In this document: positions 895 to 19,606 of the stretch, piece by piece
How the letters are laid out: every line of letters starts with the position of its first letter
Numbering within the stretch: the stretch's first letter is position 1
DNA from: Desulfosoma sp.
GTDB lineage: Bacteria; Desulfobacterota; Syntrophobacteria; Syntrophobacterales; DSM-9756
Length of the DNA stretch: 64,000 nt
Assembly: GCA_037481835.1 (NCBI GenBank)
Contig: JBBFKW010000002.1
Location: forward strand, 1-64,000
Reading direction: 5' to 3'
Position numbers and translations under genes: made by a program
The notes under the pieces: model-generated
Told to the model about the DNA's origin: nothing
Seen by the model: only the letters and a program-made list of their open reading frames with translations
The model's database searches: none

Positions 895-1679
895 TGGGAA
901 ACATGACAAAAACCAAAACCCGAAGTTTTCGTCTTGCCATCAGCGGGCTTTTTCTGTGCCTGTGTTTGGTGGGCTGCTCTTCGTCCGTTTCCCAGGAATC
1001 GCTCAAGTCCTCCAAGGTTGTGCATGGGGCGCGGCCCGTCGCGGAAAGGCAGGGCGGCAACTCGGGTTTGGTTTCCAACGGTAAGGAGAGTGTCGAAAAG
1101 TCTTCTCCTAAGCCAACGAGGCTCTCGTTGAGATTTGACCCTCCGCAGCCGGTCACGGGGGATACCTTGCGGGCCGTGGTGGACTTTGGAAAAGGCGGCG
1201 AACCCACAGACTCTTCTCTTGTTGTCCGCTGGACGGTGAACGGCAAGGAATTGGAACAAACGGGCGAAACCTTGGAACATGATTTGGTTTACGGAGATTT
1301 TGTCACGGCCACGGCTGAGCTCATGGGCACCGGTAATCAGCCTCGGCGTGTTTCGGCCTCTGTGGTGGTGGGGAATGCCCCCCCGGTCGTTTCAGTCCTC
1401 GATGAGACGCTTAAAGAGGGCGAGTTTTCCGCCACGGTGGACATCAGGGACCCAGAGGGTGACCCTGTGATCGTAGACCTTTCGGAAGGCCCTGAAGGGA
1501 TGTTCTGGAATGACGAGATGAAAGCCATCCAATGGCGGCCTGCGCCGTCTCAGAGGGGGGTGTTCCACGTGAAGCTGGAAGCCAAAGATCCCGCCGGAAA
1601 CGCGGGAGCATACAGTTTCGATGTCACGGTAACCGAACCTGAAGGCGGAGCGCCCTCCAGGGAGGGGACACGGCCATGA
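894..1679 (+). CDS. Lipoprotein with Ig/cadherin-like (putative Ig) domains
   Basis: Lipobox LVG|C; GNAPPV and DPEGDPV..L..GPEGM...WRP motifs of He_PIG/cadherin-like domains; TAATG overlap with pilE stop. Confidence 0.75.
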   Translation: MGNMTKTKTRSFRLAISGLFLCLCLVGCSSSVSQESLKSSKVVHGARPVAERQGGNSGLVSNGKESVEKSSPKPTRLSLRFDPPQPVTGDTLRAVVDFGKGGEPTDSSLVVRWTVNGKELEQTGETLEHDLVYGDFVTATAELMGTGNQPRRVSASVVVGNAPPVVSVLDETLKEGEFSATVDIRDPEGDPVIVDLSEGPEGMFWNDEMKAIQWRPAPSQRGVFHVKLEAKDPAGNAGAYSFDVTVTEPEGGAPSREGTRP

Positions 1680-2194
1680 AGGGGCACACCCGCGCGCAGG
1701 GTTTTACACTGGTGGAATTGATGATCACTGTGGCCATTGTGGGCATTTTACTCAAATTGGTGGGCTGGGGCCTTGCCGGTATGACGGCGTATGAAGACGT
1801 GCGCACGGCCGCTCGCGGACTGGAGACCGTTTTCCAAGAAGCCAAGGCCCTCGCTTACGAAAAGGGCGTGCCGCACTCCGTCGTCTTCCTTGACGGCGGA
1901 CGAGAATACCGGCTGTTTCGAGATGACAACGGCAATGACAACAGGACGGAACCCACCGACGGCGATTGCCGAAGAAACGCCGATGAGCCGTGGATCCATA
2001 ACCAGGCGCTCTCCTCCCGTGTGGCTATCGATAATAACACCTTGCCGAAGAACGCCGACAACAACCCCTGTGTTTCCTTTCGGGCCGACGGTCGGGTTGC
2101 GAGCGGTTCGGAAGGTCATGTAATTTTCAAAGGTTCGAGCGGCGAAACCCTTACGGTTTCCATCAATGCTCTGGGGTGGGTCAATGTGGAATAG
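1676..2194 (+). CDS. fimT: FimT/FimU (GspH-like) minor pilin, cluster 1
   Basis: QG|FTLVELMITVAIVGIL; C-terminal F..DGR and INALG.V typical of GspH/FimT. Confidence 0.85.
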   Translation: MKGHTRAQGFTLVELMITVAIVGILLKLVGWGLAGMTAYEDVRTAARGLETVFQEAKALAYEKGVPHSVVFLDGGREYRLFRDDNGNDNRTEPTDGDCRRNADEPWIHNQALSSRVAIDNNTLPKNADNNPCVSFRADGRVASGSEGHVIFKGSSGETLTVSINALGWVNVE

Positions 2195-2627
2195 GTTCGT
2201 CGTGATCAGATTGCGGCCCCGTGACCATGCTCTCGGAAAACGGGGGTTCACCCTGGTCGAAGTCCTCGTCTCGCTGATGGTCCTCGGCGTTGCCCTGATG
2301 TCCTTGTGGGGATTCCATTGGACGTCGCATCGGGTCAACATGAAGGCTAAGAGGGAAGCGACGGCTTTGATGCTAGCAAACGAGAAACTTGAAGAACTCC
2401 GTCGAGCGGCGAGTGCGGGGCAATCCATAGACAATGAGACGGGAACGGAAGCCCTGGACAATCAGACAAAAACCGGAATGCCGGATGGAGTCGTTTTTAT
2501 TAGACAAACGAGCATCGCGACAGACGCCGTGAACGATTGGAGGGCGAATGTCACTGTATCGGTTCGATGGACAGAACAGCGGGGTGAAGAAGGCCAGGTG
2601 GTTTTGCAAACCGTCGTGGCCCCATAA
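2184..2627 (+). CDS. pilV: PilV-like minor pilin, cluster 1
   Basis: RG|FTLVEVLVSL; A..LA.EKLEEL and VTVSVRW motifs; gene position. Confidence 0.82.
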   Translation: MWNRFVVIRLRPRDHALGKRGFTLVEVLVSLMVLGVALMSLWGFHWTSHRVNMKAKREATALMLANEKLEELRRAASAGQSIDNETGTEALDNQTKTGMPDGVVFIRQTSIATDAVNDWRANVTVSVRWTEQRGEEGQVVLQTVVAP

Positions 2628-2646
2628 CTCGCAAGGTTCCAACACC

Positions 2647-3690
2647 TTGGGTCATGCCCCCGTCTTGCCGGATGGAGGGACAAGGGGGTGGAGCTTCGGC
2701 ATGACCCTTGTGGAGTTGATGGTGGCGCTTGCCATCACGGCCTTGGTCATGGCCGCGGCGGTCGGCATCTTCACTTCCCAGCACCGAAACTACGTGCGTG
2801 ACCGATCCGAAAAAGAAATCATCCAAGATGGGGTCGATGTTTTAAAAGCCCTCCAAACGGATCTCCTGGAAGCGGGGTGGTCCGTCCGGCCGAACATGGC
2901 GTTTCTTGTGGTAGATGGCGGCCCGAGCGGTTCGGACCGGATTTTCATCAATGATGTGGATCTCATTGACCCCGTGCGCCACGCGACGAGGATGATCGAG
3001 GCGGCCGAGTGCCCTGGATGTTTGAGGATCGCCGCCATTTCGGGTTCGACCATAACCGTGGACGACCCTTGGGAGTCCTCGCCCTATCCGGATGAAGTCC
3101 TCGACATCAATGGAGACAATCAGACCGATTTCACGGACAACGGCACCGACTTTTTTGTCATCAGCGACGGGACGGACCCTGCCAAAAAGGTTGCCTCTGT
3201 GACCGCCGTAGCCAATACCCAATTGACCCTGTCATCCCCTATCGACGGCTCACTCATGGCTCCGGCCGTGGCTTACTGCATCGACAACGGGACCTCCACC
3301 TCGGTCTGTCATCCTTCTGGATCCAGGGAAAGGTTCGTGCTTCGCCGCAGTGACCGAACCACTCAGGGCCGGCTGCTTCCCATTGCGGAAAATATTGTGG
3401 ACCTTCAGGTCACCTACCAAGACGATAATGGAAATTGGTACGGGGAAGCCGGCTGTGCAGGCTCCGGCGCCGGGTCGAACTTTTGCACTCGCAAGCCGTT
3501 CGAACCTCATCACATTCGCCTGCTTCGGGTGAGTGTGGTGCTCCGGAGTCCCAAAAAGGACAAGGACCGCGCAAACGATCCCGCTTATTGCCGTCCTGCC
3601 GTGGCCAATCGACAAGCCGGTTCGGGTCCCGATGAATGCGGCTATCGTTATAAAGTGCACACCCTCGTCATTCATCCTCGAAATACCTAG
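2647..3690 (+). CDS. pilW: PilW-like minor pilin, cluster 1
   Basis: G|MTLVELMVAL; DLLEAG, IAENIVDLQVTY and C-terminal PRN motifs. TTG start chosen; ORF is open from 2548. Confidence 0.85.
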   Translation: MGHAPVLPDGGTRGWSFGMTLVELMVALAITALVMAAAVGIFTSQHRNYVRDRSEKEIIQDGVDVLKALQTDLLEAGWSVRPNMAFLVVDGGPSGSDRIFINDVDLIDPVRHATRMIEAAECPGCLRIAAISGSTITVDDPWESSPYPDEVLDINGDNQTDFTDNGTDFFVISDGTDPAKKVASVTAVANTQLTLSSPIDGSLMAPAVAYCIDNGTSTSVCHPSGSRERFVLRRSDRTTQGRLLPIAENIVDLQVTYQDDNGNWYGEAGCAGSGAGSNFCTRKPFEPHHIRLLRVSVVLRSPKKDKDRANDPAYCRPAVANRQAGSGPDECGYRYKVHTLVIHPRNT

Positions 3691-3704
3691 GAGGCTTTTT
3701 GACA

Positions 3705-4271
3705 ATGAAAACCCAAAAAAAAAACGCCGACCCCCATGACAATGTGATTCGGTCAACCGCAGGAAGGCTCGTCCTGAAAAACGAACAGGGCATGGCCATG
3801 GTGCTGACGATCTCGGCGGTGGCCTTGCTGAGCCTCCTCGGGGTTTGGCTCGTCATGCAAAGCGGCGCCACGCATCGGATCACTCAATCCGTGGAACGGC
3901 GCGAAGGAACCTTCAATCTCGCCGAAGGCGCCCTTCAACTCAGTTGGCATTGCCTCCAGACCGAGTCCAATGAGAAAATCCTCAAGGATCTTAAGAAAAA
4001 TCAAGACGTGACCCCACCTGCCAGCCTTGTCCCCTACATGCAGTCGGATCAGAAAGTGGACAACCAGACGAAAGATTCGAGAACCCTGACCCCGCGTCTT
4101 TTTTTCTTGGATTCCCAAACCGTGGCGGGATGGGATATGAATAAATTCCGAGGATATTATTACTTGGCCCAAGGGCTGGGTCTGGAAAACCTTCCCGACA
4201 AAAAAGGCGGACCCGCCCGATCCGAAGTGGTGATGTTCGTCCAAAAGGTCGGGCAGGTCCGGTCCCGCTGA
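3705..4271 (+). CDS. pilX: PilX-like minor pilin, cluster 1
   Basis: NEQG|MAMVLTI lacking Glu5; TFNLAEGAL motif; AGGAGG RBS. Confidence 0.82.
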   Translation: MKTQKKNADPHDNVIRSTAGRLVLKNEQGMAMVLTISAVALLSLLGVWLVMQSGATHRITQSVERREGTFNLAEGALQLSWHCLQTESNEKILKDLKKNQDVTPPASLVPYMQSDQKVDNQTKDSRTLTPRLFFLDSQTVAGWDMNKFRGYYYLAQGLGLENLPDKKGGPARSEVVMFVQKVGQVRSR

Positions 4272-4289
4272 TCGTGCAAAACGTTTAAT

Positions 4290-7200
4290 CTATTGCTGCT
4301 GCTTCCAGCCGCTTTTTTCCACGGGAGAGGGCAGATCCACTTTCAAGCGGTGGATTTCCCCGTTGCTCGTCTGGATGAAAAGATACTCCCCGGATGAATC
4401 CATAACGGGGCGGCTGGGCATCCCCTCGCCCAGTTTCAACACGTAAGCTTGCACCTGCCCCCCATCTTTCACCTCGGTATACTCGCCGCTTTGCAGCTGA
4501 TCCGGTGTTTTATTCACCTTGGCGAACCCCGATTTTTGGAAGGGATCGAGAGTCATGGGCCGGCACAGGTAATCGACTGCATAGAGGTAAGCGTCACCGC
4601 CGGCAGCGCAGGGATCGTCCTTGGGGACAAACGTGGTGAAGAATACGACTCCGCCCGCAACCAAGGCCGAGTCGACGACCCGCTCTCCCGCGATGGATAG
4701 ATCCTTCACACAGCTCCAGCAGGATCCCGAGCAAGACCCTTCGCAGCAATCCGGGCTGCCGTCGGCTTTGACCCAGTCACACCCGTTGAGAAATGTGGAA
4801 GAGGCGCATCGGAAAGAGGCTGTTATGTTGAGGCCGTGATAACTAATTCCACCGCTGAAGGTGTTCGGCCGGGTGGCGTTGTCATGAATGGCGTAGAAGG
4901 ACATGGTGGCGGTGTCGGTCTTGTCGTTAGAACCGCCGACGGCATTGTCGAATTTTCCCGTTCCAAAGTACAGCCAAAGGTTCTTGTACGGATCAAGGGT
5001 GGCCACGGGCATCACGGTCATGGGTTGGCGGTTGGAACGATAGATATTTGTTCCCGTTGGGGCGGGTTTGGTTTTGCTGACGCTCAGGTGCATTCCCGGC
5101 GGCGAAGCATCGAAATTGAGCTTCAAGGTGTAGAAGTTTCCGTTGAGATCCCCGAAAGCCAGATAATCCACATATCCGTCGTTGGCCACGAACCCCTGCG
5201 CATCCCAGAGATCCAAGGCCACGGGATCCCCCAGAGCATAAGGAATGGTGTTCGTTCCCGATGTGACTCTCGGCCATTGGGCCTCCCAAGTTTTGACGAT
5301 CTTGGGCCAGAGGTACTGAAAAATGTTAATGCCTTTTTCGATGTCGATCGCCAAGAAATTGGGGCGCAGGACAGCCGTCGTGGCATTGTCGCTCAGCGAC
5401 GCCGGAAGTTCCACGGATGGTTTGAACGTCCGCGGCGATGCTCCGAGAAAAGCGAACCATCCGCTCAGAGCATCGAGGCCGCGGCACGAAGAGGACAAGG
5501 AGGGGCTTCCCGCATCCAGAGACTCCACCCGTGGCTTGGTTTCGAAACACACGCCGTTGGGCACGCTCAGGGCCCCCACGTAAGGGACGGTCCAGGAAAC
5601 GGGCATGGCAGCCAACTGATCATAGACGGCCTTGTCGAGGAACGGCATTTCCCCGGTGCTCGCATCCATGACGAAGTTCCGCAATACCGGGTATTCCCAA
5701 AGGACTTTCGGAGCGTCGGGGTCGGTGACGTCGACGGCGAAATACACATCGCCGCCTCCTCGCTCGCCACCGATCAAGACCGTCCGCCATTCGCGGGTTC
5801 CATTCCCGTCATGATCGATGAAAACATCCCAGGCGACGGGAGAGAGGTCCACCATGGTTCGATGGGCGCACCCCGATGGATGGCCGTAGTCGCACTTGGC
5901 TAAGCTTTTGAGCTCAGGGAGGAGATTGCTGGGCACATAGGCCCAGAGTTCTTTGCCGATTTGCGATCCCAAGGTCCCATTGTCCGGGTCGTAGACCCAC
6001 TTGGAGGTGTTGTTATCCCACACACCGACGACAAAGGCATGAAGCATGCCGTCGTTGGCCCCCACATAAACCATTTTTTTTCGTGTGCTTTGTTTTTGGC
6101 GGAAACAGTAAAAACATTTCTCCGCACATGCGTCGACTTCCGTTTGCATGCCTGTGCAGGTGCAGGAGCAATCCCCCGCAAGGTGAGGATTCACGGAACT
6201 GATGGACGGAGGCCCCACAACCACAGGGGTGGAATAGACGATGTCCCCCAGCGGCCACCCGTGGCGATCCCGAGCCTGATCTTTCCAAAATGTGTCCCAT
6301 TCGCCGCGGAGCCATCGGATCAAGTTCCCGGAATCGTCTGCAGCGCTTCCATCGCCGTCAAAGTCGATATCGTTCGCCAAGACCGCTTCAAGAGTGCCCG
6401 AATTGGAGGGGAGCCCTGAGTAGAATGAAGTGTTGCAGGAGGATGTCCCATCGTCCAGTTTGGTCATGGTTCCGTCGATCATCGTGAAAAGGCACCGTTT
6501 ATTGGGGTCTCCATCCTTCAAAACTTTTCCGGCATCCCAGCAGGAGCCATAGGTGAATCCGGGATCGGAGCAGAACTTTCCCTTGTTCTCGGTCCTCTGA
6601 AAGCTGTATAGGGTCCCCGTGCATTGTCCGAGATACCATTGGCACCCGGTATAACTCTGACATGTGGCATTATCGGTAATATCTGTACAGTTGTCGGGCC
6701 AGTAGGCTTCCAAGTGCCCTTTCCATGCATAAATGCTGGGGTTGTCCTCGTAGGCGGTGAAAGCGCCGCGAATAACGAGATCCTGGCCCAACACTTCCTG
6801 AGTGACAGTGGCGACAGCGCCGGCGCTGCCCGCCTTGGCCAGGATGGCAAGCATGGCTTTTTCCAATTTTTGTTCCAGTTCCAGGGGGTTGGCCACGAAG
6901 AAATAATTGTCCGGAACACCGTCTCCGTCCTTGTCCCACTCGTTTTGGAGATCCGGCTTGTTGTTTCCGTTCATGTCGTCGAAACCGCCCCACTTGGCGG
7001 CGTACCATAGTGGATTCTTGAGGGTCTGTGCGGGATCGCCCGAAACGGTGAATGTCTTGGACCATGTCTTCGGCAATCCCGCGACGACGCTCGATGTGTC
7101 AGCATCCGCGCTATCTGGCACATCCGTGTCTTTGACAGGCAGATAGAGACCGTCCTCATTTGTTCCGGAAATAACGAATCCCAGAACCTGATCGATGCAC

Positions 7201-9356: not shown

Positions 9357-9484
9357 AGCCGATCCTCCCTATCTCATGGGATGTCAGGATGCCGACTCGC
9401 GTCACGATGGAAACTCGAACGTCCCAGTGAGGACAACGCCGCACCTCGGGCGGGGCCCCCTAGTCTTAGGAATCCTCATGTAAG

Positions 9485-9512
9485 GTATCGGCAGATTTTT
9501 TGTAAAAAATAA
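9485..9512 (-). promoter_or_regulatory. Possible sigma28 promoter for pilY1 (cluster 1)
   Basis: Minus strand TTAT-N16-GCCGATAC; good -10, weak -35. Confidence 0.4.
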
Positions 9513-9613
9513 ATCTTTTTCGCTGTTGCGGGCAAAAAATTTTTTCATGTTTCACGCGTGACCATGTTATGAAATTAAATAACATCCACTACCATGGTGT
9601 ATCCGAGGGCGCA

Positions 9614-10771: not shown

Positions 10772-10848
10772 GCGCACGGAGGAACTATGTTCCACGGCGC
10801 CCCTTCGTGCGGAACTTCGCGGCCGGGGGGACGGAAGATCGGGAGCGG

Positions 10849-12039
10849 GTGCGCCCGAACAGGGGGAAAAGGCGGGGAAGGAATTCTGGAGGCGGGCGAA
10901 CGGAGATTTTTGGAGAGCGGGATTTTTGGCGGCGGGGCATGAGCCTTGTGGAATTGCTCACGGCCGTAGCCGTCACGGCCGTGGTGATGCTTTCCGTCTA
11001 CGGGGCCTTTACGGCCCAGCAGCGCTTCTACGGGGAGGAACAGCTGATCCTGGAGCTGCAGCAAAACCTGCGCGCGGCTTTGGACGCCGCCGCGCAGACA
11101 CTCCAGCAGGCGGGTTACTGGCGATGCGTGGACCCTCACCGGGTCAGCCGAGAAGGGGCGGGCGTCAAAAACGCCCTGCGTGAGGCGGGAAATCTTTTCC
11201 ACACGCATCCTGTGATGGGGTTTAACAACGTCTCGGCTGATTCGGAACCTTTCTCCGACGGGCAGACCCGCCTTGGGACCGACGTCCTGGGATACAGTTT
11301 CATCGATCCGGCCTTCCACGGACCGCTCGCCCAGGACCAGGCCGTGCCGTCGGGTCCCCTCCGGCTCGTCAAGAATCCCTTCACGAGCGGCCTGAAGAAG
11401 GGCCAGATCGTTTTCGTCACCGCATGCCGTCGAAGCGCCCTGTTTCAAGTGACGGGCGTTTCAACAAGCGGCGGTGGGGTCACCCTGGAACACGAGGCTG
11501 GGGCGGGCTTCCCGGGAAACGCCACGCGCTGCCTCCAGTGCGACGACGGCACATCGGCCTGTCTGGATGAGGGCGCATGCGCCGGATCGGGTAACGGCTT
11601 TGCCAAGGATGTCTCCTTCGTCCACCCTGTCAAGGTGGGTTATTTTCGCGTGAACACCAAGGGAGAATTTCAATGGATCGAAGGCGGACCTGGGACCGGC
11701 GTGCAGTTTGTCTTTTCCGGCCCCCGGACCTTGGCCGAAAACGTGGAAGATTTCCAGGTGGAATTCGGGGTGGACATGAGCCCGATCCCGGATGGGTCCG
11801 CGGAGGCGTGGGTGCCGGCTGACGCTGTCCCCGATGCCATGCCGGAAGACGGCTTTCCCGATTGGGAACGGGTGACGGCCGTGCGCTGCCATCTTCTCGG
11901 GCGCGCCCGGAGGGCCTTCAAAAATTTCGTGAACACGAACACGTATCTTTTCGCGGATCGAGACGCGAAGCCCACCGGGGACGGGTATCGACGTCTCCAC
12001 GTGATGAAAACGGTGATCTTGCGCAATGCCATGCCGTAA
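10849..12039 (+). CDS. pilW: PilW-like minor pilin, cluster 2
   Basis: RRG|MSLVELL; LQQNLR..L...LQQAGY, LAENVEDFQVEFGVD and C-terminal LRN. Start uncertain (ORF open from 10756). Confidence 0.85.
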   Translation: MRPNRGKRRGRNSGGGRTEIFGERDFWRRGMSLVELLTAVAVTAVVMLSVYGAFTAQQRFYGEEQLILELQQNLRAALDAAAQTLQQAGYWRCVDPHRVSREGAGVKNALREAGNLFHTHPVMGFNNVSADSEPFSDGQTRLGTDVLGYSFIDPAFHGPLAQDQAVPSGPLRLVKNPFTSGLKKGQIVFVTACRRSALFQVTGVSTSGGGVTLEHEAGAGFPGNATRCLQCDDGTSACLDEGACAGSGNGFAKDVSFVHPVKVGYFRVNTKGEFQWIEGGPGTGVQFVFSGPRTLAENVEDFQVEFGVDMSPIPDGSAEAWVPADAVPDAMPEDGFPDWERVTAVRCHLLGRARRAFKNFVNTNTYLFADRDAKPTGDGYRRLHVMKTVILRNAMP

Positions 12040-12055
12040 GAAATGGGATCTCAAC

Positions 12056-12568
12056 ATGATGCCGGGCGTCACCCCCTCGACGGGGACCATTTTTGTCCCG
12101 TGTCCGTGGACCGGAAGGTGGGGTGGTTGGAGAGAGCCACCCGGTTTCACCCTTGTGGAAGTTCTTGTGGCCGTCGTCGTAGCCGTGGTGGTCTTTTTAG
12201 CGTTTTTCGGCGTGCATGCCATAGGAATCCGAACCCGAGCCCACGCCCGGCTGGCGTCCGCGGCGCTCAATGTTGCGGCGGATTTCGTGGATCAAGTGGC
12301 GGTGTCCGCCGGAGACACCGTTGTCATCAACGGCGAAGGAGTGGCCGATTCCGGTTTTCTTGAAAACGGCGTCCCCACGGGGTCGGGGGCGGTTTTTTCA
12401 AGGCGCTGGGACATTCAAAGGGGGGTTCCTGCGCCGCATCTTGTGACGGTGCGGGTGATCCTGTGCTGGAGCGAACCCGGAAAACCTCTGCCTACGGCGG
12501 TTCATTGCGATTTCCCGGATCCCGCGGCGCCCCATGTGGCGCTGGAGGCGGTGTTGTATCGGCCGTGA
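12056..12568 (+). CDS. pilV: PilV-like minor pilin, cluster 2
   Basis: G|FTLVEVLVAV; FSRRW.I and VTVRV..CW motifs. Confidence 0.78.
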   Translation: MMPGVTPSTGTIFVPCPWTGRWGGWREPPGFTLVEVLVAVVVAVVVFLAFFGVHAIGIRTRAHARLASAALNVAADFVDQVAVSAGDTVVINGEGVADSGFLENGVPTGSGAVFSRRWDIQRGVPAPHLVTVRVILCWSEPGKPLPTAVHCDFPDPAAPHVALEAVLYRP

Positions 12569-12694
12569 AGGGGAGGGTGTTGGGGTTCGCTGAGCTCACA
12601 CCAACCTCCATTGGGACGGGAGATTTTCACGAGATTTATCGGCGGCATGAGTGGATGGGAGGGGCGGTGAAGAGAAGGAAGAGGAGCGGGAGGC

Positions 12695-13378
12695 ATGGAT
12701 GCGGGGCGATGGGGTGGAAGGAGGGGTGAGCCAGCTGGGAAGTGCCCGGGGGTTTTGGTGCGCAATCGCGAAGGCATGGCCTTGCCCTTGGTGCTGGTGA
12801 TCGTGGCGGCTCTGGCGGTTTTGACCGTGGGCTTGGCCCTGGACCATGCCGTGGAGATGCGTATCGCGGGGAACCGCAAGGCTGCGGAGACGGCTTTTCG
12901 AAACGCCGAGGCAGGCCTTGCGCTGGCGCAACAGCGGCTGGCTCAAAGATTCGCTTCAGACCCCGTGAACCTGCAGCGCCGGCGCTCAGGCAGCGCAGCG
13001 CTTCCGGACTGGGATTTCCTGTTCCTGGGGGTGGTGCCGTACGCGGGCCGAAACAGCCGAAGCGACCTTTACGATGAGGTCAAGGTGGATTTGGGCATGG
13101 ATCATCGGTTCAAGGTCTTTGCCAGGCTCCCCGAAGACCGCAAAGACGGCGCCTTTAACGACCTGTACGGGGACAACACCCGAGTGGTGCTGCGCAGCGT
13201 GGGTTTCGGCCCGGCCGGGGCGGAGCAGGAAACGGAACTGATGGTGGAAGCCGCTGCCGAACCGTCCGCGTCCGTCTGTTACGCCCAGGAAGGGGGAGGG
13301 TCCATGCCCGGCTACGTAAACATGCATGATCGGGATGCCGTCTCCGCGATGGGATCGCCTCTCGCCACGGTTCCCTGA
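12695..13378 (+). CDS. pilX: PilX-like minor pilin, cluster 2
   Basis: NREG|MALPLVL lacking Glu5; IAGN...AFRNAEAGL PilX N-terminal motif. Confidence 0.85.
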   Translation: MDAGRWGGRRGEPAGKCPGVLVRNREGMALPLVLVIVAALAVLTVGLALDHAVEMRIAGNRKAAETAFRNAEAGLALAQQRLAQRFASDPVNLQRRRSGSAALPDWDFLFLGVVPYAGRNSRSDLYDEVKVDLGMDHRFKVFARLPEDRKDGAFNDLYGDNTRVVLRSVGFGPAGAEQETELMVEAAAEPSASVCYAQEGGGSMPGYVNMHDRDAVSAMGSPLATVP

Positions 13379-13589
13379 GGCCCGGAACGAGCCGGAAGGG
13401 GGCCGCGAGAGGTCGGGACCGAACGCGAAGGAAGACGAACGAGCGCAAGGGAGCCGATGGATACAAGAAAGATGAGCGATGTGAAGGTCCGCCGGGGTCT
13501 TCGTTGTAGGAGTGGCGCGCCGCGAGGGTGAAGCACAGGGCGAAGTCTTCGCCACGGGGCGGGCCAGGTGGATGGAAGGGGTGGAAAAG

Positions 13590-16500
13590 ATGGTCGGCAC
13601 AAATCCCGCAATGCGCCGCGTCGCCCGGGTTGTCCTCCCGGGCATCCTCATAGGGGTCGTCTCTGCGGCTTTCGGGGCCGTGTGCGAACCCCAGAGAACC
13701 GTCCGGTATGACGGGGCGTGGCAGAAGAGCCATTTCAGCGTCTTGGACCCCCCCGTGGTCATTGACCCCGACACGGGCCGTCTTGTCCTGCGCCCCGGCG
13801 TCCCCGCGCCCGATTGGGAAAGGATCGTTACGGCAAAAGACCAGGACGTGCGCGTGACGTTCGTCTTCCAAGGGTCCGAAGGCTCCCGGAACCACCTGGG
13901 TTATTTCTTGAAATCCGCTGCGCACCGCAAAGGCTACATCGGACAGGACGGGAGCCTCGATCGCACGGCCTTCGTTCGAGGAATCAATTTCACAGATCCG
14001 GCCGGCTACGATGCGGAAACGTTTCACTACATTTTCACGTGCCTTCGGGATGAAAACCAAAACGGCATTCTCGAAAAACCCTCCGGCCCGGGATGCGCGG
14101 CATCATTTCCCGAAGCGGCATCTGCCGTCCTGGACTATGCCGATACGGAAGAAGCCCTGGCGAGGGTGGAGGACGGCACGGGGCTGGCTTTCGTCCCGGA
14201 CGGCGACGGGCGGATCACCGTTCGGGATATGACCAAGAGTCTCGGCATCATTGCGGAAGGGGAAGAGATCGTTTTCTTCATGGTGCCTGACGGCCGCTTC
14301 CAGGATGCCTTTGTGACCAAGGCCTCATGGAACGGGGACGTGTATGCGGGGATCGATCCATGCGGGGCCGAGTTTTCCGACGGCATGCCGCCGAAAACAT
14401 ACCGCCTGAACACTTCCGCCCCGGATGACGGTACCTGCGCCGTGGATTCCGGCTGGCTTCCGGCGCGGGCTCTGGAGCGCCTGCGGGAAGGGTTGGGCAT
14501 CGTTTTTGATCCCGAGGATGCCGCTCACGTGTCCGTGCACACGGGAAAGAAATTTTCCCACGTGATTATCGGGGCTTCTCGCCGCTTTCCCACCCGATGG
14601 GTCATGGGGTGGGAAGACGGTGAAGGGGGAACCGATACGGATCACAACGACCTCGTGGTTGCCGTATCCCTTAAGGCGGCGGGGCGCGCCGTATCCCAGG
14701 ATTTGACCGGAGCCCAGCTTGCCGAGACGGGGGCGTTCATCACGGCCGTGGATGTGGAAGTGACGGATCGCCGAGCCCCTTGTGAGGCCGCCGAGGCCGG
14801 GTTCGTTTTGGAAAGCGGCGGTTTGACGGGTGCGGCCGTATCCTACTTCATCAGCGTGGATAACGGGACCTCGTGGCTTCCCGTCCGTTCCTGGAACGAG
14901 GTGATCCAGGGCGAGGACGGGTTTCAAACCCGAAAGGCCCACGTGGACGTTTTGAGCACCGGCCGCACAGGCCGTGCCCTTAAGTGGAAAGCCGTCCTGG
15001 AAACCGTGGACGGGCGCTGCGATCCGCCGGAGATTGCCGGCGTGAAAGTCGCCTATACGGCCGCGGCAAGCGGAGAATTTTCGCGCGCCGATCCCGTGGT
15101 GCTCGGAAACGTCTTGTATTCCGGTTCATTGGAAACCCCGTCCGCGTCATGGGCGGAGCCGTCTCGACTCCGCGGGCATCTTCGGGCTTACAAGATCTAC
15201 GACCCGGCCGATCCCGCACGACCCCTTTTCGACCTTCTTTGGGACGCGGGCCCAAAACTTGCCGAACGGTCTTTTAAGACCGAGCCTAGAGCGGTCCTGA
15301 GCCCGATCGGTGAAGCTCGGACCTTCCGGGAAACCGTCGGAACCGGAGACGGCGTCACGCGCCGTTTTCAGGGAAACCTTTTCCAAGGGTCGGTTCTTCC
15401 CGCATCGGTAATCTTTCGGAGCATATCCGAGGCTGGGGCCTCCCTGATCGTCACCGAATCCGGTGAAGGGGATTTCCAAGGCGACGGCGCCGGAACCATC
15501 CACCGGGGGACCGGGTACTATGCGCTCGAGTTTGTGCAGGCTCCGTGCGATGGCTGTCCCGTCAAAGTGGAAGGCGTTACTTTCACGCAAGGCAGCGAAC
15601 TGCGGCCTTTTTCCGAAGAAACCCTATCAGCCCTCATGCTGGGCCTGAGCGACGCCTATGTCCACGGGACGGGTTACGCATGGGACCTGAACGGCGACGG
15701 GCGATACGACGATACGGACCGAGGGCACCTGATCCGGTGGGTGTTGGGCTTTGACGGTCCCGCTCAAAGGCCGTGGCCCTTGGACGGGATCGATCACGGC
15801 ACACCGGCCGTGGTGGGACCGCCGGGGCTTCCCCCGTGGTATTTCGGCACGGGGACGACCCCGGAGGAACGGGACGCCTATGATCTTTGGAGGCAGTCGG
15901 AATCCGTGGCGAAGCGACCCACGGTGGCCTATACGGGAAGTTTGGGAGGCATGATCCACGCCTTCCGTGCCGGCCGCTACCGCCACGGGGACGATCCCCG
16001 GACGCCCGTAAGAGAAAACAGGGGATACTTCGACGGGCACGATTACGGCGACGGCGCCGAACTGTGGGCCTTTCTTCCTTCAAATCACATTTCCAGGCTA
16101 AAGCTTTTCCTGAGGCCCGACCCCCGGGCCGCCCCTCCGAGCATGGATGCCTCGCCGGCGGTCCACGACATCGCCGTGGCGACCGACAAGGGCCCTGTGT
16201 TTAAAACGGTCCTTTTGTCGGCTCAAGGGGCTGGAGGGGACACCATCGTCGCCCTGGATGTGACGGATCCCGAAAAGCCGTCATTTCTTTGGGAATACGC
16301 CGACCCCGACCTTTATCGAAGCCGGGCGGCTTGCGCCGTGGCGAAAATCGGCCGGTTGAACGACCGCGGTTCTCCCGCATGGGCGGCTTTCTTCCCTTCA
16401 GGGCGAACGCACGACCAATCTCACCCGTTTCTTTTTGTCTTCGATGCCGCTCGCGGCTCCCTGATTGGAAAGAAAGCCTTCGACGTCGTGGACACCAATC

Positions 16501-17321
16501 GAGGCGCCCTTTTGAGCGGCAGTGCCGCCGTTGTGGACAGTGACGGAAACGGCTTTGCAGACCGGGCCTATCTGGCGGACAACAAGGGCCATGTGTACCG
16601 CGTGGACTTTCCGGATCGGGCGGAATGGGCCTGGGATCCGGCAAAGATCGCCGTGAGTCTCCTCGTCAAGGTATCCTCACCGGTTTATGCCACCCCGGTG
16701 GTCTATCTCGCCCACCGGTACAAGCCGGATGGAACCATCGACGAAGAGCACGTCAAGGTCATGTTCGGCACTGGGGACGATCCCTACCACGCCGACAGTC
16801 CCAACGCCCCGACGGGCTACAAGTTCTATGTTTTTGACGATACCTGCCGGAGGGATGGATCCGGCGGGGTTCTGCGCCGAAACGACGGCACGCCGTGTGC
16901 GCCGGAAAAGATGTTCACGGAGGCGGAGGCCCAGTGGATCTGGACGCTTCTGGGGGGCCACCGCATCTGGGCCGAAGCCGTCGCCGCCGCCGGGAGGGTC
17001 TATTTCGGCACGGCGGTGACGGATACCACCGATCCCTGCGCGCCCTTGCAAGACGAAGGAAAAAAGGGAGGCACGGTCTACAGCGTAGATCTCGCCGCGT
17101 TGGAGCCGGAGTTGGAACCGACGGTCGTCATGGAAGCGGAAGGAAACGTGACAGGACTTTTTGTGGAGGACGAACACCTGTACGCCAAGGTGACGTCGCG
17201 GGAAGGCGGCACCCGAGTGCGCGTGGTGGGCGACGGCCTTTTCAACAACGAAACGGTGCTCGGAACGACCTACGTCACAAGGAAGGTCAAAGGGTCCTGG
17301 CGGCGCATTTTGGAAAAGTGA
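13590..17321 (+). CDS. pilY1: PilY1-type tip adhesin with N-terminal DUF4114-like domain (cluster 2)
   Basis: Signal peptide; WEDGEGGTDTDHNDLVV (DUF4114-like); GMIHAF, ELWAFLP, LDVTDP..P..LWE, DSDGNGFADRAY and FGTG propeller motifs; ends in SWR. Start uncertain. Confidence 0.88.
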   Translation: MVGTNPAMRRVARVVLPGILIGVVSAAFGAVCEPQRTVRYDGAWQKSHFSVLDPPVVIDPDTGRLVLRPGVPAPDWERIVTAKDQDVRVTFVFQGSEGSRNHLGYFLKSAAHRKGYIGQDGSLDRTAFVRGINFTDPAGYDAETFHYIFTCLRDENQNGILEKPSGPGCAASFPEAASAVLDYADTEEALARVEDGTGLAFVPDGDGRITVRDMTKSLGIIAEGEEIVFFMVPDGRFQDAFVTKASWNGDVYAGIDPCGAEFSDGMPPKTYRLNTSAPDDGTCAVDSGWLPARALERLREGLGIVFDPEDAAHVSVHTGKKFSHVIIGASRRFPTRWVMGWEDGEGGTDTDHNDLVVAVSLKAAGRAVSQDLTGAQLAETGAFITAVDVEVTDRRAPCEAAEAGFVLESGGLTGAAVSYFISVDNGTSWLPVRSWNEVIQGEDGFQTRKAHVDVLSTGRTGRALKWKAVLETVDGRCDPPEIAGVKVAYTAAASGEFSRADPVVLGNVLYSGSLETPSASWAEPSRLRGHLRAYKIYDPADPARPLFDLLWDAGPKLAERSFKTEPRAVLSPIGEARTFRETVGTGDGVTRRFQGNLFQGSVLPASVIFRSISEAGASLIVTESGEGDFQGDGAGTIHRGTGYYALEFVQAPCDGCPVKVEGVTFTQGSELRPFSEETLSALMLGLSDAYVHGTGYAWDLNGDGRYDDTDRGHLIRWVLGFDGPAQRPWPLDGIDHGTPAVVGPPGLPPWYFGTGTTPEERDAYDLWRQSESVAKRPTVAYTGSLGGMIHAFRAGRYRHGDDPRTPVRENRGYFDGHDYGDGAELWAFLPSNHISRLKLFLRPDPRAAPPSMDASPAVHDIAVATDKGPVFKTVLLSAQGAGGDTIVALDVTDPEKPSFLWEYADPDLYRSRAACAVAKIGRLNDRGSPAWAAFFPSGRTHDQSHPFLFVFDAARGSLIGKKAFDVVDTNRGALLSGSAAVVDSDGNGFADRAYLADNKGHVYRVDFPDRAEWAWDPAKIAVSLLVKVSSPVYATPVVYLAHRYKPDGTIDEEHVKVMFGTGDDPYHADSPNAPTGYKFYVFDDTCRRDGSGGVLRRNDGTPCAPEKMFTEAEAQWIWTLLGGHRIWAEAVAAAGRVYFGTAVTDTTDPCAPLQDEGKKGGTVYSVDLAALEPELEPTVVMEAEGNVTGLFVEDEHLYAKVTSREGGTRVRVVGDGLFNNETVLGTTYVTRKVKGSWRRILEK

Positions 17322-17362
17322 AAGCCCCCGGGCCCCCATCAGGACACATTTTCCTTGAGGGC

Positions 17363-19606
17363 CTAGCGTCGGGCCGGAAGGACTTCCCAGAGCTGATACA
17401 CGAAAGGTTTTTGAGCGACGCGGCGGAATCGGCCTCCGGCAGGCGTTTCGTTCAAGAAAAACAATCGGTGAAAAACCGAATCCCCGATGGCCGCTCCATC
17501 CATGAGCACGCCCAATGAGACGGCCTGGTGCAGATCGAGGTGAGGCCCCATGCCGTCTCGGTAACGCCACATGGTCCGGGTGCCGTCTGGGCCGACCAAG
17601 CCCAGGGAAGAGAGGGGGACGAGGCGATCGCCCAGGTGAAGTTCCCCGCGCTGGAGATGAACGCCAGCGGCACCCGGCACCCGCCGTGTCGAATCGTCCC
17701 AAAGAACCACGGGATAGATGGGCCGATAGGTCGGATGAATGCCGTCTCGGATTTCCGGGTCCCAGGTGCCGAACCAATACCACCAGTAGGCCGTGTTGAG
17801 GAGCAGTTGATCCAAGAAAAGATAAACCGGACGCGGAGGATCGGGATAGAAAAAGGTGCTCCAGGTATTTTTTCCGGGAATTCGGGTGAGCCCCAAACGG
17901 CGGGCATTTTCTTCACACCCATCGGGACCGGCGGAAAGCATGACTCTTAGGGCCTTCAGGGTTTGGGTTGCGGAAAGCCCGTTGGCGCGCGAAAATTCCC
18001 GGATGCCGGATAAGCCCCGGGCGCTGAAAAAGATCATGAAATTCGCTGCAAAACTTTCGTCCGTTGCGGCCAAAGGCATGGCCAAGGACACCACCAGCTC
18101 TCCGCCGTGGATTTCCCCGTCGGCGATGGTGCCGCGCCGAGCCCAGTATTGCAGATGATACCCATGGTCCCACCAAGCCCAAAGCACGGCGTTTTCCGGG
18201 GTGCGCCGCGCCGCTTCCGTCATGCCGGAGACGACCGGGGCGTTTTCCGACGGCCACCTCACGGCTTTGGCCGTGCTGAAAAAGGCGGGAAGAAGAAAAA
18301 TCGTTCCCACCGTTAAGGCCGCCGCCGTGGAAAACACCCGCCGGGCCGAGATCCCTGTCGATGGCGGCACCGTGGGCGAGGGCGCGGGCGGATCGCCCTT
18401 TTGGCGCGCAGGCCGGGAGTGGGCGGTTTCGCGACGGAAGCGTTCCCAAAAAGCGGGCGAGGGGGTTTCCAGGCGCCGCTGGAGGCGGTCCGCGATCCAT
18501 CCCAAGCCCAGGCCTGCAAGAGGGGCGGCGTAGACGGCGAGACGTTGGGCGAAAAAAGATCCCACGAAACCGAGAACGATCAAGGGCGCGAAGAAAAAAA
18601 ACGTGCTCGGCTGCGTGATGAAAAGCCATCCGAGACCCAAAACCGCAACGGTGAGCACCCCCGCATGGCCCGCCACGGTGCGTGCGAATTCCTCGAAACT
18701 CGGCCGAACCTGCTCACTGATGGACAAACCGATGTTGGGAAAATCCCCCGGGGCTTGTTTGATAAGCATGTATGCGAGTTGGCCCCTGGCTCGGTGCCAG
18801 GCGTCCACGAAAGGAGTGGGACCCTTGAAAGCGAAGAGCACGGCGGCGGCGCAAAAAACAAGAGCCAAAACGACCCAGAGGGATTTCTTGTCGCCCCTCC
18901 GGCGCCGTTTCACCAAGGCCGCCGCCAAAGGGACGGCCGCCAGAAGAAACGGCGTTTGAGGGCTCTGATCCCACCACCAGGCATGCAGCCCCACGGCCGC
19001 CAAGGCGCTCCCGAGCCATAAACCGGCGCGCCGGGACGCGTTGGAAAAGCCCATCAGGCATCCCACGACCAGGACGGGAAGGCCCACGTTCAGGCTGTCC
19101 GTATCCAAACGCCCGAGATTGGTGCGGTGCACAAAAAATGGGGAAAGCCCCAAGGCCGCACAGGCGATGAGCGCTCCCACGGGGCCCATGAGGGTCCGGG
19201 CGGGCACGTAGAGGCACAGGGCCGAAAGGGCACCGAGTACGGCCGGCAGGGCCATGGCGATCCAGGGGATGGAAACGCCGCTGAGCTTGTGCAGACCCGC
19301 GGTGAGGAGACTCAGGAGCGGTATGGGCCGAGGTCGCGCCGGACTGTCAGGAACCCCGCGAAAAGAGTCTTGCGCCTCGTAGGTTCCTTCCACCACGTCG
19401 CGAGCCAACCGCATGTAGTACGGCGCGTCGAACGTGGTGGGCAAGGGTTCCCCCTGGACAAAGCACCGGTCCCGATGCTGTTTCCAGGCCGGATACGGCG
19501 CAAGGCGCACCCATAGCCCCGAGGCGATCACGGCGGCGAGCCCCAAAGCGACCCACAGTCGAGAGGATCGGTAAAGGGCGGCCACGTGGGAAGGAATGGG
19601 GTTCAT
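17363..19606 (-). CDS. pglB: STT3/PglB/AglB-family N-oligosaccharyltransferase
   Basis: Polytopic membrane N-half with TTFDAPYY, R....RLDTD and SISE (TIXE-like) motifs; periplasmic WWDHG (WWDYG-like) and DGEIH motifs. Confidence 0.9.
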   Translation of the reverse strand: MNPIPSHVAALYRSSRLWVALGLAAVIASGLWVRLAPYPAWKQHRDRCFVQGEPLPTTFDAPYYMRLARDVVEGTYEAQDSFRGVPDSPARPRPIPLLSLLTAGLHKLSGVSIPWIAMALPAVLGALSALCLYVPARTLMGPVGALIACAALGLSPFFVHRTNLGRLDTDSLNVGLPVLVVGCLMGFSNASRRAGLWLGSALAAVGLHAWWWDQSPQTPFLLAAVPLAAALVKRRRRGDKKSLWVVLALVFCAAAVLFAFKGPTPFVDAWHRARGQLAYMLIKQAPGDFPNIGLSISEQVRPSFEEFARTVAGHAGVLTVAVLGLGWLFITQPSTFFFFAPLIVLGFVGSFFAQRLAVYAAPLAGLGLGWIADRLQRRLETPSPAFWERFRRETAHSRPARQKGDPPAPSPTVPPSTGISARRVFSTAAALTVGTIFLLPAFFSTAKAVRWPSENAPVVSGMTEAARRTPENAVLWAWWDHGYHLQYWARRGTIADGEIHGGELVVSLAMPLAATDESFAANFMIFFSARGLSGIREFSRANGLSATQTLKALRVMLSAGPDGCEENARRLGLTRIPGKNTWSTFFYPDPPRPVYLFLDQLLLNTAYWWYWFGTWDPEIRDGIHPTYRPIYPVVLWDDSTRRVPGAAGVHLQRGELHLGDRLVPLSSLGLVGPDGTRTMWRYRDGMGPHLDLHQAVSLGVLMDGAAIGDSVFHRLFFLNETPAGGRFRRVAQKPFVYQLWEVLPARR

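Follow-up and report, generated by a model that had tools for sequence, protein, structure and literature searches.

A dsbC-pglB operon beside type IV pilus tip genes of Desulfosoma and the putative N-glycosylation of the pilus tip at D-N-X-T sites

The window analysed here, a 64,000-nucleotide stretch of DNA from Desulfosoma sp., carries type IV pilus genes in two priming/tip sets, each of minor pilins and PilY1, with a dsbC-pglB operon beside them. Comparison of these sequences with those of relatives makes it probable that the operon matures the pilus-tip complex and that PglB N-glycosylates this complex at fast-evolving D-N-X-T loop sites, and the operon is read as a candidate periplasmic maturation unit. 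Glycan attachment, PglB as its agent, the function served and a role for Asp(-1) in recognition are inferred from sequence. If true, this points to N-glycosylated pilus tips, a kind not described in bacteria.

Gene content of the locus

The host is a heat-loving sulfate reducer, and the features of its pilus locus are as follows.

253..894, plus strand: PilE0, ComP_DUS-type pilin (PF16732 and PF07963) that opens cluster 1, its start probably at 481
879..1679, plus strand: He_PIG/Ig-domain protein (PF05345) with a lipobox-like N-terminus, between PilE0 and FimT1
1676..2194, plus strand: FimT1, GspH-type minor pilin (PF07963 and PF12019)
2166..2627 (alternative start 2184), plus strand: PilV1, minor pilin (PF07963)
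2548..3690 (alternative start 2701), plus strand: PilW1, minor pilin (PF16074 and PF07963)
3699..4271, plus strand: PilX-position minor pilin (PilX1), named by position only and matching no Pfam family
4290..9356, minus strand: PilY1-1, 1688-aa tip adhesin with a signal peptide and 50 Cys (PF05567)
9569..10114, plus strand: PilE2, ComP_DUS-type pilin of cluster 2 (PF16732)
10139-10771, plus strand: FimT2, minor pilin of cluster 2 (10139..13378 set; Pfam GspH)
10756-12039, plus strand: PilW2, minor pilin of cluster 2 (Pfam PilW)
12026-12568, plus strand: PilV2, minor pilin of cluster 2 (Pfam N_methyl)
12695-13378, plus strand: PilX2, minor pilin of cluster 2 (Pfam PilX_N)
13512..17321, plus strand: PilY1-2, second PilY1 paralogue (PF05567)
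17363..19606, minus strand: PglB-type oligosaccharyltransferase, 747 aa (PF02516, 52 bits; PF21436, 34 bits)
19613..20365, minus strand: DsbC-type disulfide isomerase (PF10411 and PF13098), separated by 6 nt from pglB downstream of it

The pilY1-1 gene is convergent with the minor-pilin operon. PilE0 also heads the cluster in relatives, and the He_PIG/Ig-domain protein, which lacks a D-sequon, has an orthologue at the same position in ten genomes (G001-3, G005, G008, G006, G014, G010, G016, G029). The original prediction placed PglB directly after the pilus clusters; it does adjoin them, but on the minus strand and behind dsbC, in a transcription unit that holds no pilus gene.

The catalytic motifs of PglB are intact: aligned with C. 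lari PglB (3RCE), it retains D(56), DxD, the E of S-I-S-E, R(375) and WWD, the last within a WWDHG motif at residue 478. A soluble domain of 300 aa comes after at least nine hydrophobic segments. The PglB comparison turned up no candidate residue for reading Asp(-1), and the PglBs of clade A of the PglB tree do not all share the Arg near the R331 position.

D-N-X-T sequons and their distribution

The minor pilins of cluster 1 carry nine sequons, eight of which are D-N-X-T: DNRT (D88, nt 1937) and DNNT (D119, nt 2030) in FimT1, DNET (nt 2430) and DNQT (nt 2457) beside an ANVT in PilV1, DNQT (nt 3115), DNGT (nt 3136) and DNGT (nt 3283) in PilW1, and a single DNQT (nt 4059) in the PilX-position pilin. 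PilY1-1 has 18 sequons, including one overlapping pair, and in seven of them (DNAS, DNCT, three DNAT, DNNT and DNGT; D codons at nt 7358, 6695, 6674, 6017, 5984, 5390 and 4883) Asp stands at -1, so that seven of the ten DN dipeptides in the protein belong to sequons. Cluster 2, although it is the cluster that adjoins pglB, has only two D-sequons, DNET in PilE2 and DNGT in PilY1-2 (one of five sequons in the latter), and the three sequons of FimT2, PilW2, PilV2 and PilX2 all lack D at -1; the mature part of PilE0 contains no sequon. The gene and motif positions, every D codon and the counts of the original prediction (8 of 9 in the minor pilins with Asp at -1 and Thr at +2, about 18 sequons and 7 of 10 DN dipeptides in PilY1-1, two D-sequons in cluster 2) were all reproduced. 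An AF2 model of PilW1 (mean pLDDT 79.6) places all three sequon Asn residues in coil, two of them within loop 122-150, and the flanks of the D-sequons in PilY1-1 are less conserved (0.73 versus 0.82) and more often gapped.

Against 40 composition-keeping shuffles, the 14 D-N-X-T of the five cluster-1 proteins compare with a mean of 0.6, and no shuffle reaches 14. Control motifs are flat (DNXS 1 versus 0.7 expected; ENXT, DQXT and the reversed TXND 0 each), as is the Campylobacter-type [DE]XNXT (1 versus 0.7 expected). The cluster accounts for 14 of the genome's 67 D-N-X-T, and its proteins rank 1 (PilY1-1), 2 (PilW1), 3 (PilV1), 5 and 30 among 3112 proteins. The 14 occurrences of GAYAAYNNNACN all lie in frame 0, with none in frames 1 or 2 or on the opposite strand, and their codons vary; the pattern belongs to the protein rather than to the DNA. 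The enrichment does not extend to the exported proteome, where a check against cytoplasmic proteins gave no sequon-specific signal: outside the pilus clusters, exported proteins have 14 D-N-X-T where 10.6 are expected, and DQXT, a control that is no sequon, is raised equally.

Orthologues of PilY1-1 in the four genomes of the genus (G000-G003), all with PglB, have 6, 14, 9 and 8 D-N-X-T, as against 0, 0 and 0 in three PglB-less members of the same family (G005, G008, G006; 62-72% identity). The nearest relatives of the genus's PilY1-1, at 72% identity, come with neither PglB nor the motif; these three genomes are 96-99% complete, and neither protein query nor Pfam STT3 found a PglB/STT3 gene in them. 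Their dsbC orthologue lies directly downstream of pilY1-1. In the four minor pilins the D(-1) sequons number 8, 6, 6 and 4 in the genus versus 0, 0 and 0, and the D-N-X-T totals for all five cluster-1 proteins are 14, 19, 14 and 11, or 17, 15 and 12 for G001-G003 when D-N-X-S sequons are left out. Column 90 of FimT1 is DNxT in all four genus genomes and GQRD or GNLD in the PglB-less orthologues; the PilX-position DNQT, present in three of the four, is replaced there by GTGP or VPGH. The DNET of PilE2 is conserved in all four, and PilY1-2 orthologues in the genus have 1-3 D-N-X-T in the parts covered. The PilY1-1 sites turn over quickly: 14 of the 24 D-sequon columns in the genus occur in one genome only, and just 2 of the 24 are common to the PglB-less orthologues, compared with 7 of 23 non-D sequon columns (e.g. 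KNLS, ANLS).

In a class-wide count of 122 genomes grouped by the PglB tree, PilY1-1 orthologues have 58 D-N-X-T per 14,765 aa in clade A hosts versus 4.2 expected, 1 per 10,908 aa in clade B hosts and 3 per 34,679 aa in genomes without PglB, with all five clade A genera ranking above the 13 other genus groups; expectation from each protein's own composition is 0.2-0.8 in every group. The D(-1) form makes up 58 of 112 N-X-T in clade A hosts versus 3 of 115 without PglB, while non-D N-X-T is about equally dense in both (54 in 14.8 kaa versus 112 in 34.7 kaa), and the N-X-T surplus in PglB-linked PilY1 consists wholly of the D-form. Thr occupies +2 in 86 of 96 D-sequons versus 77 of 139 non-D sequons, and Ala is commonest at +1 (28 of 96 D-sequon sites). 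In genus g11 (G016, G075), where pglB directly abuts pilY1, none of seven D-sequon columns is identical to the 24 of the host's genus; this second lineage gained the motif independently, at different positions. All eight sequons in the minor pilins of G016 lack D at -1, which counts against the preferred reading.

The co-occurrence of the motif with this PglB clade is not general: outside the class it fails as a property of the clade. In four clade A hosts from other families of the phylum with PglB unlinked to pilus genes (G251, G281, G338, G411), PilY1 homologues have 3, 0, 1 and 0 D-N-X-T, no clear enrichment (4 in 7121 aa versus 2.2 expected), and in the PglB-less genomes sampled alongside them the count is 10 in 29,002 aa versus 9.9 expected. 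PglB adjoins a PilY1 gene in G000-3, a Desulfosoma MAG (L001), G007, G016, G075, G076 and G029; these linked cases represent roughly four genera from two families, kinship makes the genomes non-independent, and linked and unlinked hosts were separated only once the data had been seen. G078 has only three D-N-X-T, and G080 has none, a count taken from fragments. Pilin-type ORFs lie within 10 kb of 3 of 80 clade A PglB loci, the other 77 have no nearby pilin ORF and none has a D-N-X-T-rich neighbour; adjacency to pilus genes is not a trait of the clade.

Maturation of the tip complex and alternative explanations

In the proposed pathway, DsbC would sort the disulfides of the 50-Cys PilY1-1, and PglB would then move a lipid-linked glycan onto exposed-loop Asn residues of PilY1-1, FimT1, PilV1, PilW1 and the PilX-position pilin, before their incorporation into the pilus tip. 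The sites would be D-N-X-T: Asp at -1, most often Ala at +1, Thr far more often than Ser at +2, and no requirement for an acidic residue at -2. Rapid turnover of the sites between species would be expected if selection drives such a glycan coat to diversify, and phages or grazers that exploit the pilus tip may exert that selection. The claim that the locus N-glycosylates the priming complex through D(-1)-N-X-T is supported in part, by the orthologue comparison; the proteome-wide count, the rarity of pilus adjacency in the PglB clade and the unlinked clade A hosts lend it none, and Asp(-1) is a putative determinant read by the enzyme.

That the motif reflects a fold feature (Asx turn or Ca-binding loop), composition or a DNA-sequence effect unrelated to glycosylation is extremely improbable. 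Loops rich in D and N bind Ca2+ in PilY1 proteins, and turns containing DN are frequent, but composition predicts counts of 0.2-0.8 in every group, the nucleotide pattern keeps to the reading frame and 14 of the 24 site columns are restricted to a single genome. Equal motif density in pglB-less orthologues, which the original prediction named as evidence against itself, was looked for in PilY1-1, FimT1, PilV1, PilW1 and PilX1 of G005, G008 and G006; the count is zero at 62-72% identity, the idea survives, and a turn or Ca-binding bias is therefore ruled out as the cause. Coincidence of lineage, in which a D-N-X-T-rich PilY1 and a clade A PglB were inherited together while the motif serves another enzyme, receptor contact or a folding phase, is improbable. 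The few related genera of one class that supply the positives, the failed prediction at the phylum level and the lack of a pilus gene co-transcribed with pglB are consistent with it; against it, the nearest PilY1-1 relatives lack both PglB and the motif, the g11 sites occupy different columns, and the motif is an N-X-T sequon, the only known difference in content between the two kinds of genome being an N-glycosylating enzyme beside pilY1 in four genera.

An account on which PglB modifies these proteins but needs N-X-T alone, Asp(-1) being selected for loop conformation, occupancy, Ca2+ or charge by the glycan, or Asn protection, is unlikely, though it has more in its favour. D. marinus PglB is reported to be indifferent to the -1 residue, and a wide range of sequons is accepted by Desulfovibrio PglBs (PMC12229607, PMC4894442); the exclusively non-D sequons of the G016 minor pilins, the scarcity of D-N-X-T where a clade A PglB is unlinked and the failure to find an Asp-reading residue point the same way. 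Set against these are the wholly D-form surplus at unchanged non-D density, the convergence of two lineages, each at its own positions, on a single four-residue motif, and the bias toward Thr(+2) in D-sequons. Recognition of D-N-X-T by PglB remains the preferred reading.

Comparison with known systems

Campylobacter jejuni and C. lari PglB (pgl locus; PDB 3RCE, 5OGL, 6GXC) is likewise a single-subunit STT3-family enzyme, of general N-glycosylation, and shares with the PglB described here D in EL1, DxD, E in EL5, the WWD motif and a soluble C-terminal domain. Exported targets and an extended N-X-S/T sequon with one Asp would be further likenesses, but sequence similarity is remote (E 2.6e-8), the motifs differ (WWDHG and S-I-S-E-Q versus WWDYG and T-I-x-E), and the Asp would stand at -1 rather than -2. 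Unlike the Campylobacter gene, pglB here is adjoined by dsbC and pilus genes without pgl glycan-synthesis genes, and its targets would be pilus-tip proteins instead of a broad periplasmic proteome.

The PglBs of Desulfovibrio (D. gigas, D. alaskensis, D. vulgaris, D. marinus), from the phylum of the host, resemble it in a dispensable acidic -2 residue and an S-[IV]-x-E motif in EL5. In scFv13-R4 they glycosylate an internal site, R-D-N-A-T (Ollis et al. 2015, PMC4894442; Nat Commun 2025, PMC12229607), which matches the commonest form of the motif here (+1 Ala), and the same sources give WWDWG, DGGR and NL motifs and a -1 preference that is relaxed or, for D. marinus (PMC12229607), absent. The sole native substrate named in the passages compared is cytochrome HmcA, at T-A-N-G-T; they make no mention of a pilus protein, and the word "pilin" occurs 0 times in either paper (PMC4894442, PMC12229607). 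Clade A PglB has WWDHG in place of the WWDWG given for Desulfovibrio.

In the O-linked systems (PglL/PilO/TfpO, Wzy_C-family O-oligosaccharyltransferases) a lipid-linked glycan is likewise transferred to pilus proteins in the periplasm, and in Pseudomonas O-linked pilin glycosylation protects against pilus-specific phages. These enzymes form Ser/Thr linkages, usually on the major pilin, unlike what is proposed for the locus here. The host has five Wzy_C genes, all of them outside the contig region of the window, and these fail to account for an Asn-centred motif.

Archaeal AglB, also of the STT3 family, modifies archaellins and type IV pilins before their assembly, at N-X-S/T and on the outward-facing side of the membrane, and it provides the parallel of an STT3-family enzyme that, as is proposed here, acts on type IV filament subunits. 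The present system differs in its bacterial host, in a motif that includes the -1 Asp and in its probable targets, the tip minor pilins and PilY1 rather than the major subunit, PilE0 being free of sequons.

Pilus gene sets and the adjoining oligosaccharyltransferase gene

Two sets of type IV pilus tip and priming genes, recognized with Pfam, lie at positions 253-17321 of the window, which corresponds to contig C2:1-64000 in a genome of 3.63 Mb; beyond the dsbC-pglB operon that follows them, the window is taken up by chemotaxis and flagellar genes. Pilins with class III signal peptides, of the FimT/GspH, PilV and PilW types, are encoded in one locus together with a PilY1 beta-propeller protein, the composition of a minor-pilin/PilY1 priming complex.

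481-894, forward strand: PilE0, a ComP_DUS-type pilin, cluster 1 (Pfam)
879-1679, forward: He_PIG Ig-domain protein, cluster 1 (Pfam)
1676-2194, forward: FimT1, cluster 1 (N_methyl, GspH)
ending at 2627, forward: PilV1, cluster 1 (N_methyl)
ending at 3690, forward: PilW1, cluster 1 (N_methyl, PilW domain)
3699-4271, forward: PilX-position pilin, cluster 1 (no family match; named from position only)
4290-9356, reverse: PilY1-1, cluster 1 (PF05567; 1688 aa; signal peptide; 50 Cys; convergent with the minor-pilin genes)
9569-17321, forward: cluster 2, comprising PilE2, FimT2, PilW2, PilV2, PilX2 and PilY1-2
within 9569-17321, forward: PilY1-2, cluster 2 (PF05567)
17363-19606, reverse: STT3/PglB gene, 747 aa, 6 nt downstream of dsbC
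19613-20365, reverse: dsbC, first gene of a dsbC-pglB operon

The He_PIG/Ig-domain protein, which has a lipobox-like N-terminus, keeps its place between the first pilin and FimT in all cluster-1-type operons compared, those of 10 relatives. The stop codon of pilY1-1 is 18 nt from that of the minor-pilin operon, and the genes are convergent in this family, whereas pilY1-1 of the relative G016 (L104 9735-14495) is co-directional and the last gene of its operon; thus the gene was inverted in one of the two lineages. G+C content is 61-63% in cluster 2 and pglB (10001-20000), 54-57% in cluster 1 and 57-60% elsewhere in the window, and on this measure cluster 2 and pglB may have been inserted later.

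The PglB protein, which together with its neighbors is 66-87% identical to the proteins of a Desulfosoma metagenome-assembled genome (MAG; L001), carries the domains of the STT3/PglB/AglB family (GT66), scoring 52.0 bits for PF02516 (cut-off 24.5) and 34.1 bits for PF21436 (cut-off 23). A crude hydropathy scan gives at least 9 hydrophobic segments up to residue 442, followed by a soluble domain of 300 aa. In the C. lari enzyme the functional residues are D56 (EL1), D154/D156 (DxD), E319 (EL5, TIXE/SVSE) and R331, which binds the Asp/Glu at -2. A HMMER alignment with C. lari PglB (3RCE) pairs TTFDA with TTNDG (EL1 Asp), LDTDS with YDTDM (DxD) and SISEQ with ETIME (EL5 Glu), so that the catalytic acidic residues are kept, and the conserved Arg is paired as well. 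WWDHG at residue 478 aligns to WWDYG of 3RCE, the motif that binds the +2 Ser/Thr; past the WWD block the C-terminal domain, in which the family carries its DK/MI motif, does not align to 3RCE.

A tree of PglB from 47 relatives splits into two groups, clade A, which includes the window enzyme and most of 80 further loci, and clade B. Clade A sequences are uniformly WWDHG, S-I/V-S-E-Q and N/A-DG-x-x-H in the alignment, and those of clade B are WWDYG, S-I-S-E-L and DGG-x-Q. The catalytic acidic residues are invariant in 44 of 45 aligned sequences of both clades; in the row for G075 the EL1 motif falls in a gap, probably through a start-site artefact.

The candidate acceptor motif in the pilus proteins and the genome

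The original prediction, that the PglB encoded near the pilus genes N-glycosylates pilus tip proteins at sequons with Asp at -1 (D-N-X-T; D-sequons where +2 is Ser or Thr), was based on counts that a recount of the window pilus proteins reproduced in full. The four minor pilins of cluster 1 contain nine sequons, eight of them D-N-X-T; PilY1-1 has 18, with Asp at -1 in seven, or seven of its ten DN dipeptides; and cluster 2 has two D-sequons. Together the five cluster-1 proteins hold 14 D-N-X-T where about 0.6 would be expected from their own composition, a number reached in 0 of 40 shuffles, and the control motifs DNXS, ENXT, DQXT, reversed TXND and Campylobacter-type [DE]XNXT are flat in the same proteins. 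The last of these occurs once (0.7 expected), so that the minus-two rule of Campylobacter does not describe these putative substrates. A motif or repeat at the DNA level as the source of D-N-X-T is excluded, since the 14 matches to GAYAAYNNNACN are all in frame, with 0 in the other frames and 0 on the opposite strand, and their synonymous codons differ; D-N-X-T is thus a motif of the protein.

In the genome as a whole, scanned with our own gene call of 3112 genes, 67 D-N-X-T are present against 58.7 expected, and ranking of all 3112 by excess places PilY1-1 first, PilW1 second, PilV1 third and FimT1 fifth. The proposal that exported proteins in general would be enriched over cytoplasmic ones did not hold. 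Exported proteins outside the window pilus genes, assigned by crude localization rules, have 14 D-N-X-T (10.6 expected; 7 of 40 shuffles reach 14) and cytoplasmic proteins 10 (19.7 expected), but the non-sequon control DQXT gives the same contrast (exported, 25 against 12.4 expected; cytoplasmic, 17 against 26.4), and the difference is therefore not specific to sequons. Cytoplasmic proteins show a general avoidance of such motifs, at about half the composition expectation also for D-N-X-S (10 against 20.7) and [DE]-X-N-X-T (24 against 44.9).

Other exported proteins with D-N-X-T are a TadG-like Flp-pilus protein (3), a BACON-domain protein (2), a di-haem cytochrome c peroxidase (2) and a Spy/CpxP-like protein (1); among cytoplasmic proteins DnaK has two. 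The TadG-like pseudopilin (Tad_C, TadE/G; G000:C6:113312-114580, L111) ranks 4 of 3112 and extends the motif to another kind of pilus protein; orthologues of it, found in just two of 40 relatives (G023 and G016), have 0 D-sequons each and are too few for comparison.

Distribution of the motif among relatives with and without PglB

Among the 40 relatives compared, some with syntenic cluster-1 operons have PglB and others lack it, absence being scored by protein query and Pfam STT3. Such a comparison, in which the same proteins, at 62-78% identity, can be viewed with and without the enzyme, is seldom available for post-translational modifications. An equal motif density in the orthologues from genomes lacking pglB had been named as the outcome that would count against the original prediction, and the opposite is found: within the family the D-N-X-T contrast is complete. 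PilY1-1 of the genome under study and of three others of its genus (G000-G003), which have PglB and are 73-78% identical to each other in this protein, contains 6, 14, 9 and 8 D-N-X-T, against 0, 0 and 0 in three family members in which PglB was not found (G005, G008 and G006; genomes 96-99% complete; 62-72% identity to G000). Likewise, the minor pilins have 8, 6, 6 and 4 sequons with Asp at -1 in the former and 0, 0 and 0 in the latter. In single alignment columns, D-N-A-T in all four PglB genomes is replaced by GQSV or DQSA in the PglB-less ones, D-N-x-S by DAGG and D-N-x-T by EADE. Sequons without the Asp, such as KNLS and ANLS, are common to both sets and are taken to be structural, outside the phenomenon.

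The contrast extends to a class sample of 122 genomes, in which all five clade-A genera lie above the thirteen other genus groups for D-N-X-T.

D-N-X-T in PilY1-1 orthologues of the class sample. Groups were set from the PglB tree; G076, G080 and G029 (genes fragmentary) were put in clade A, and G017 and G019 in clade B, from identity and genus; the PilY1 counted for G007 is a distant paralogue.
Clade-A hosts: 58 D-N-X-T in 14,765 aa (4.2 expected)
Clade-B hosts: 1 in 10,908 aa
No PglB: 3 in 34,679 aa

In-frame stops are present in pglB and/or the adjacent pilY1-1 homologue of G029 (L108, G029:C41:20000-39999) and, for pilY1 only, of G080 (C49); the genes are either decaying or affected by assembly errors, these MAGs being 84-88% complete.

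Extended to clade A as a whole, the prediction failed in a phylum sample of 401 genomes. Four clade-A hosts (G251, G281, G338 and G411) have 3, 0, 1 and 0 D-N-X-T, or 4 in 7121 aa (2.2 expected), and each has PglB on a different contig from its PilY1-1 homologue; seventeen PglB-less sequences of this sample have 10 in 29,002 aa (9.9 expected). Of the 80 clade-A PglB loci in other genomes, three have pilin-type ORFs nearby, and none has a D-N-X-T-rich neighbor, no ORF having more than two. The D-N-X-T rule does not hold across all of clade A. As the unlinked clade-A hosts and these loci show no clear enrichment, nor the exported proteins of G000 outside the pilus clusters a sequon-specific one, D-N-X-T appears instead as a pilus-tip specialty of lineages with pglB beside pilY1, a grouping that was set post hoc.

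D-N-X-T by linkage of PglB to PilY1 (post hoc grouping; class and phylum counts summed).
PglB within ~10 kb of a PilY1 gene (genera g1, g3/G007, g11, g18): 59 in 12,688 aa (3.75 expected)
Unlinked clade A: 7 in 9,833 aa (2.86 expected)
Other PglB types: 2 in 15,636 aa (4.7 expected)
No PglB: 13 in 63,681 aa (20.1 expected)

The positions of the sites change rapidly. Across the four genomes of the genus, D-sequons fall in 24 columns of PilY1-1, four present in all, one in three, five in two and fourteen in a single genome; the flanks of these sites are less conserved (0.73 vs 0.82) and gaps are commoner there. In genus g11 (G016, G075 and G076), pglB stands immediately next to a pilE0...pilY1 operon of the same direction, and the seven D-sequon columns of the PilY1 there all differ from those 24; at one of the seven g11 has D-N-A-T where all others have D-T-A-T. 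Since the columns differ, the same four-residue motif was gained independently. Among 96 D-sequons of clade-A hosts, which are not independent, conserved sites being counted once per genome, Thr occupies +2 in 86 (against 77 of 139 non-D sequons), Ala is commonest at +1 (28), and acidic residues are not preferred at -2.

In a reasonable AF2 model of PilW1 (pLDDT 79.6) all three sites lie in coil, two of them within a low-confidence loop; as modeled, they would fit the requirement of PglB for flexible acceptor loops. The corresponding model of PilY1-1 residues 640-1688 (mean pLDDT 57.9) was too poor for placing sites. Comparison of clades A and B in the PglB alignment revealed no residue that explains a preference for Asp at -1. 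One candidate, an Arg adjacent to the R331 position, occurs only in this genus and G007 and is not conserved in clade A.

A putative glycan coat on the pilus tip and its relation to known systems

What stands of the original prediction is the motif excess and its association with PglB among orthologues; a clade-wide rule and a proteome-wide signal do not. On this sequence evidence, an N-glycosylated pilus tip with D-N-X-T as acceptor motif is the best reading and probably correct. A fuller account is more tentative and, in our judgment, falls somewhat short of an even chance: a pilus-linked branch of the WWDHG-type clade may read D-N-X-T, its Asp one position nearer the Asn than the -2 Asp of Campylobacter, and chiefly build an N-glycan coat that changes rapidly on the PilY1 tip adhesin and the minor pilins; at least two lineages would have acquired this coat independently, each at positions of its own. 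The active site of PglB faces the periplasm, where PilY1-1 would be exported by Sec and the minor pilins, anchored in the inner membrane, would expose their globular parts. Candidate genes for the donor glycan, of the initiating-transferase and flippase/ligase kinds, are found elsewhere in the genome (3 Bac_transf, 3 Glycos_transf_4 and 5 Wzy_C), none linked to pglB.

Orthologues of dsbC lie directly downstream of pilY1-1 in the three PglB-less family members (L096 12324-12986; L097 12349-13011; L098 5551-6213), and this position ties dsbC to PilY1-1. DsbC thus looks like a dedicated folding factor of the 50-Cys adhesin, and by this link the dsbC-pglB operon would serve in maturation of the tip complex. 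The quick turnover of sites suggests a glycan coat under diversifying selection. By analogy with the O-glycosylated pili of Pseudomonas, whose glycan is linked to phage defense, such a coat might protect against phages that bind the pilus tip.

Most of what is known about PglB-dependent N-glycosylation in bacteria comes from Campylobacterota and from a few Desulfovibrio enzymes studied in E. coli, and almost no native substrates are known outside Campylobacter; bacterial pili are described as O-glycosylated. The open-access literature searched yielded no N-glycosylated PilY1 or minor pilins in bacteria, related matches being archaeal or O-linked work only, and irrelevant matches only for the WWDHG motif. 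If the glycosylation reading is true, PilY1 and the minor pilins of this locus form a set of native substrates for a PglB clade so far unstudied, with D-N-X-T as a simple acceptor rule that can be put to the test; the coat, if real, would be the first case of an N-glycosylated pilus in bacteria and would add a new rule to those by which bacterial oligosaccharyltransferases choose their acceptors. A new sequon specificity would also be of interest to glyco-engineering, a field in search of short or orthogonal acceptor tags.

The enzyme of Campylobacter requires Asp/Glu at -2, in contrast to the Asp at -1 proposed for substrates of the window PglB. The published Desulfovibrio PglBs have a relaxed requirement at -2 and attach glycan to an internal R-D-N-A-T site of scFv13-R4 (PMC4894442, PMC12229607), and D. 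marinus PglB has no -1 preference (PMC12229607); pilins are mentioned in neither paper. The Desulfovibrio enzymes described there have WWDWG where clade A has WWDHG (PMC4894442, PMC12229607), and the motif combinations of clades A and B both differ from the Campylobacter set and from the published Desulfovibrio set.
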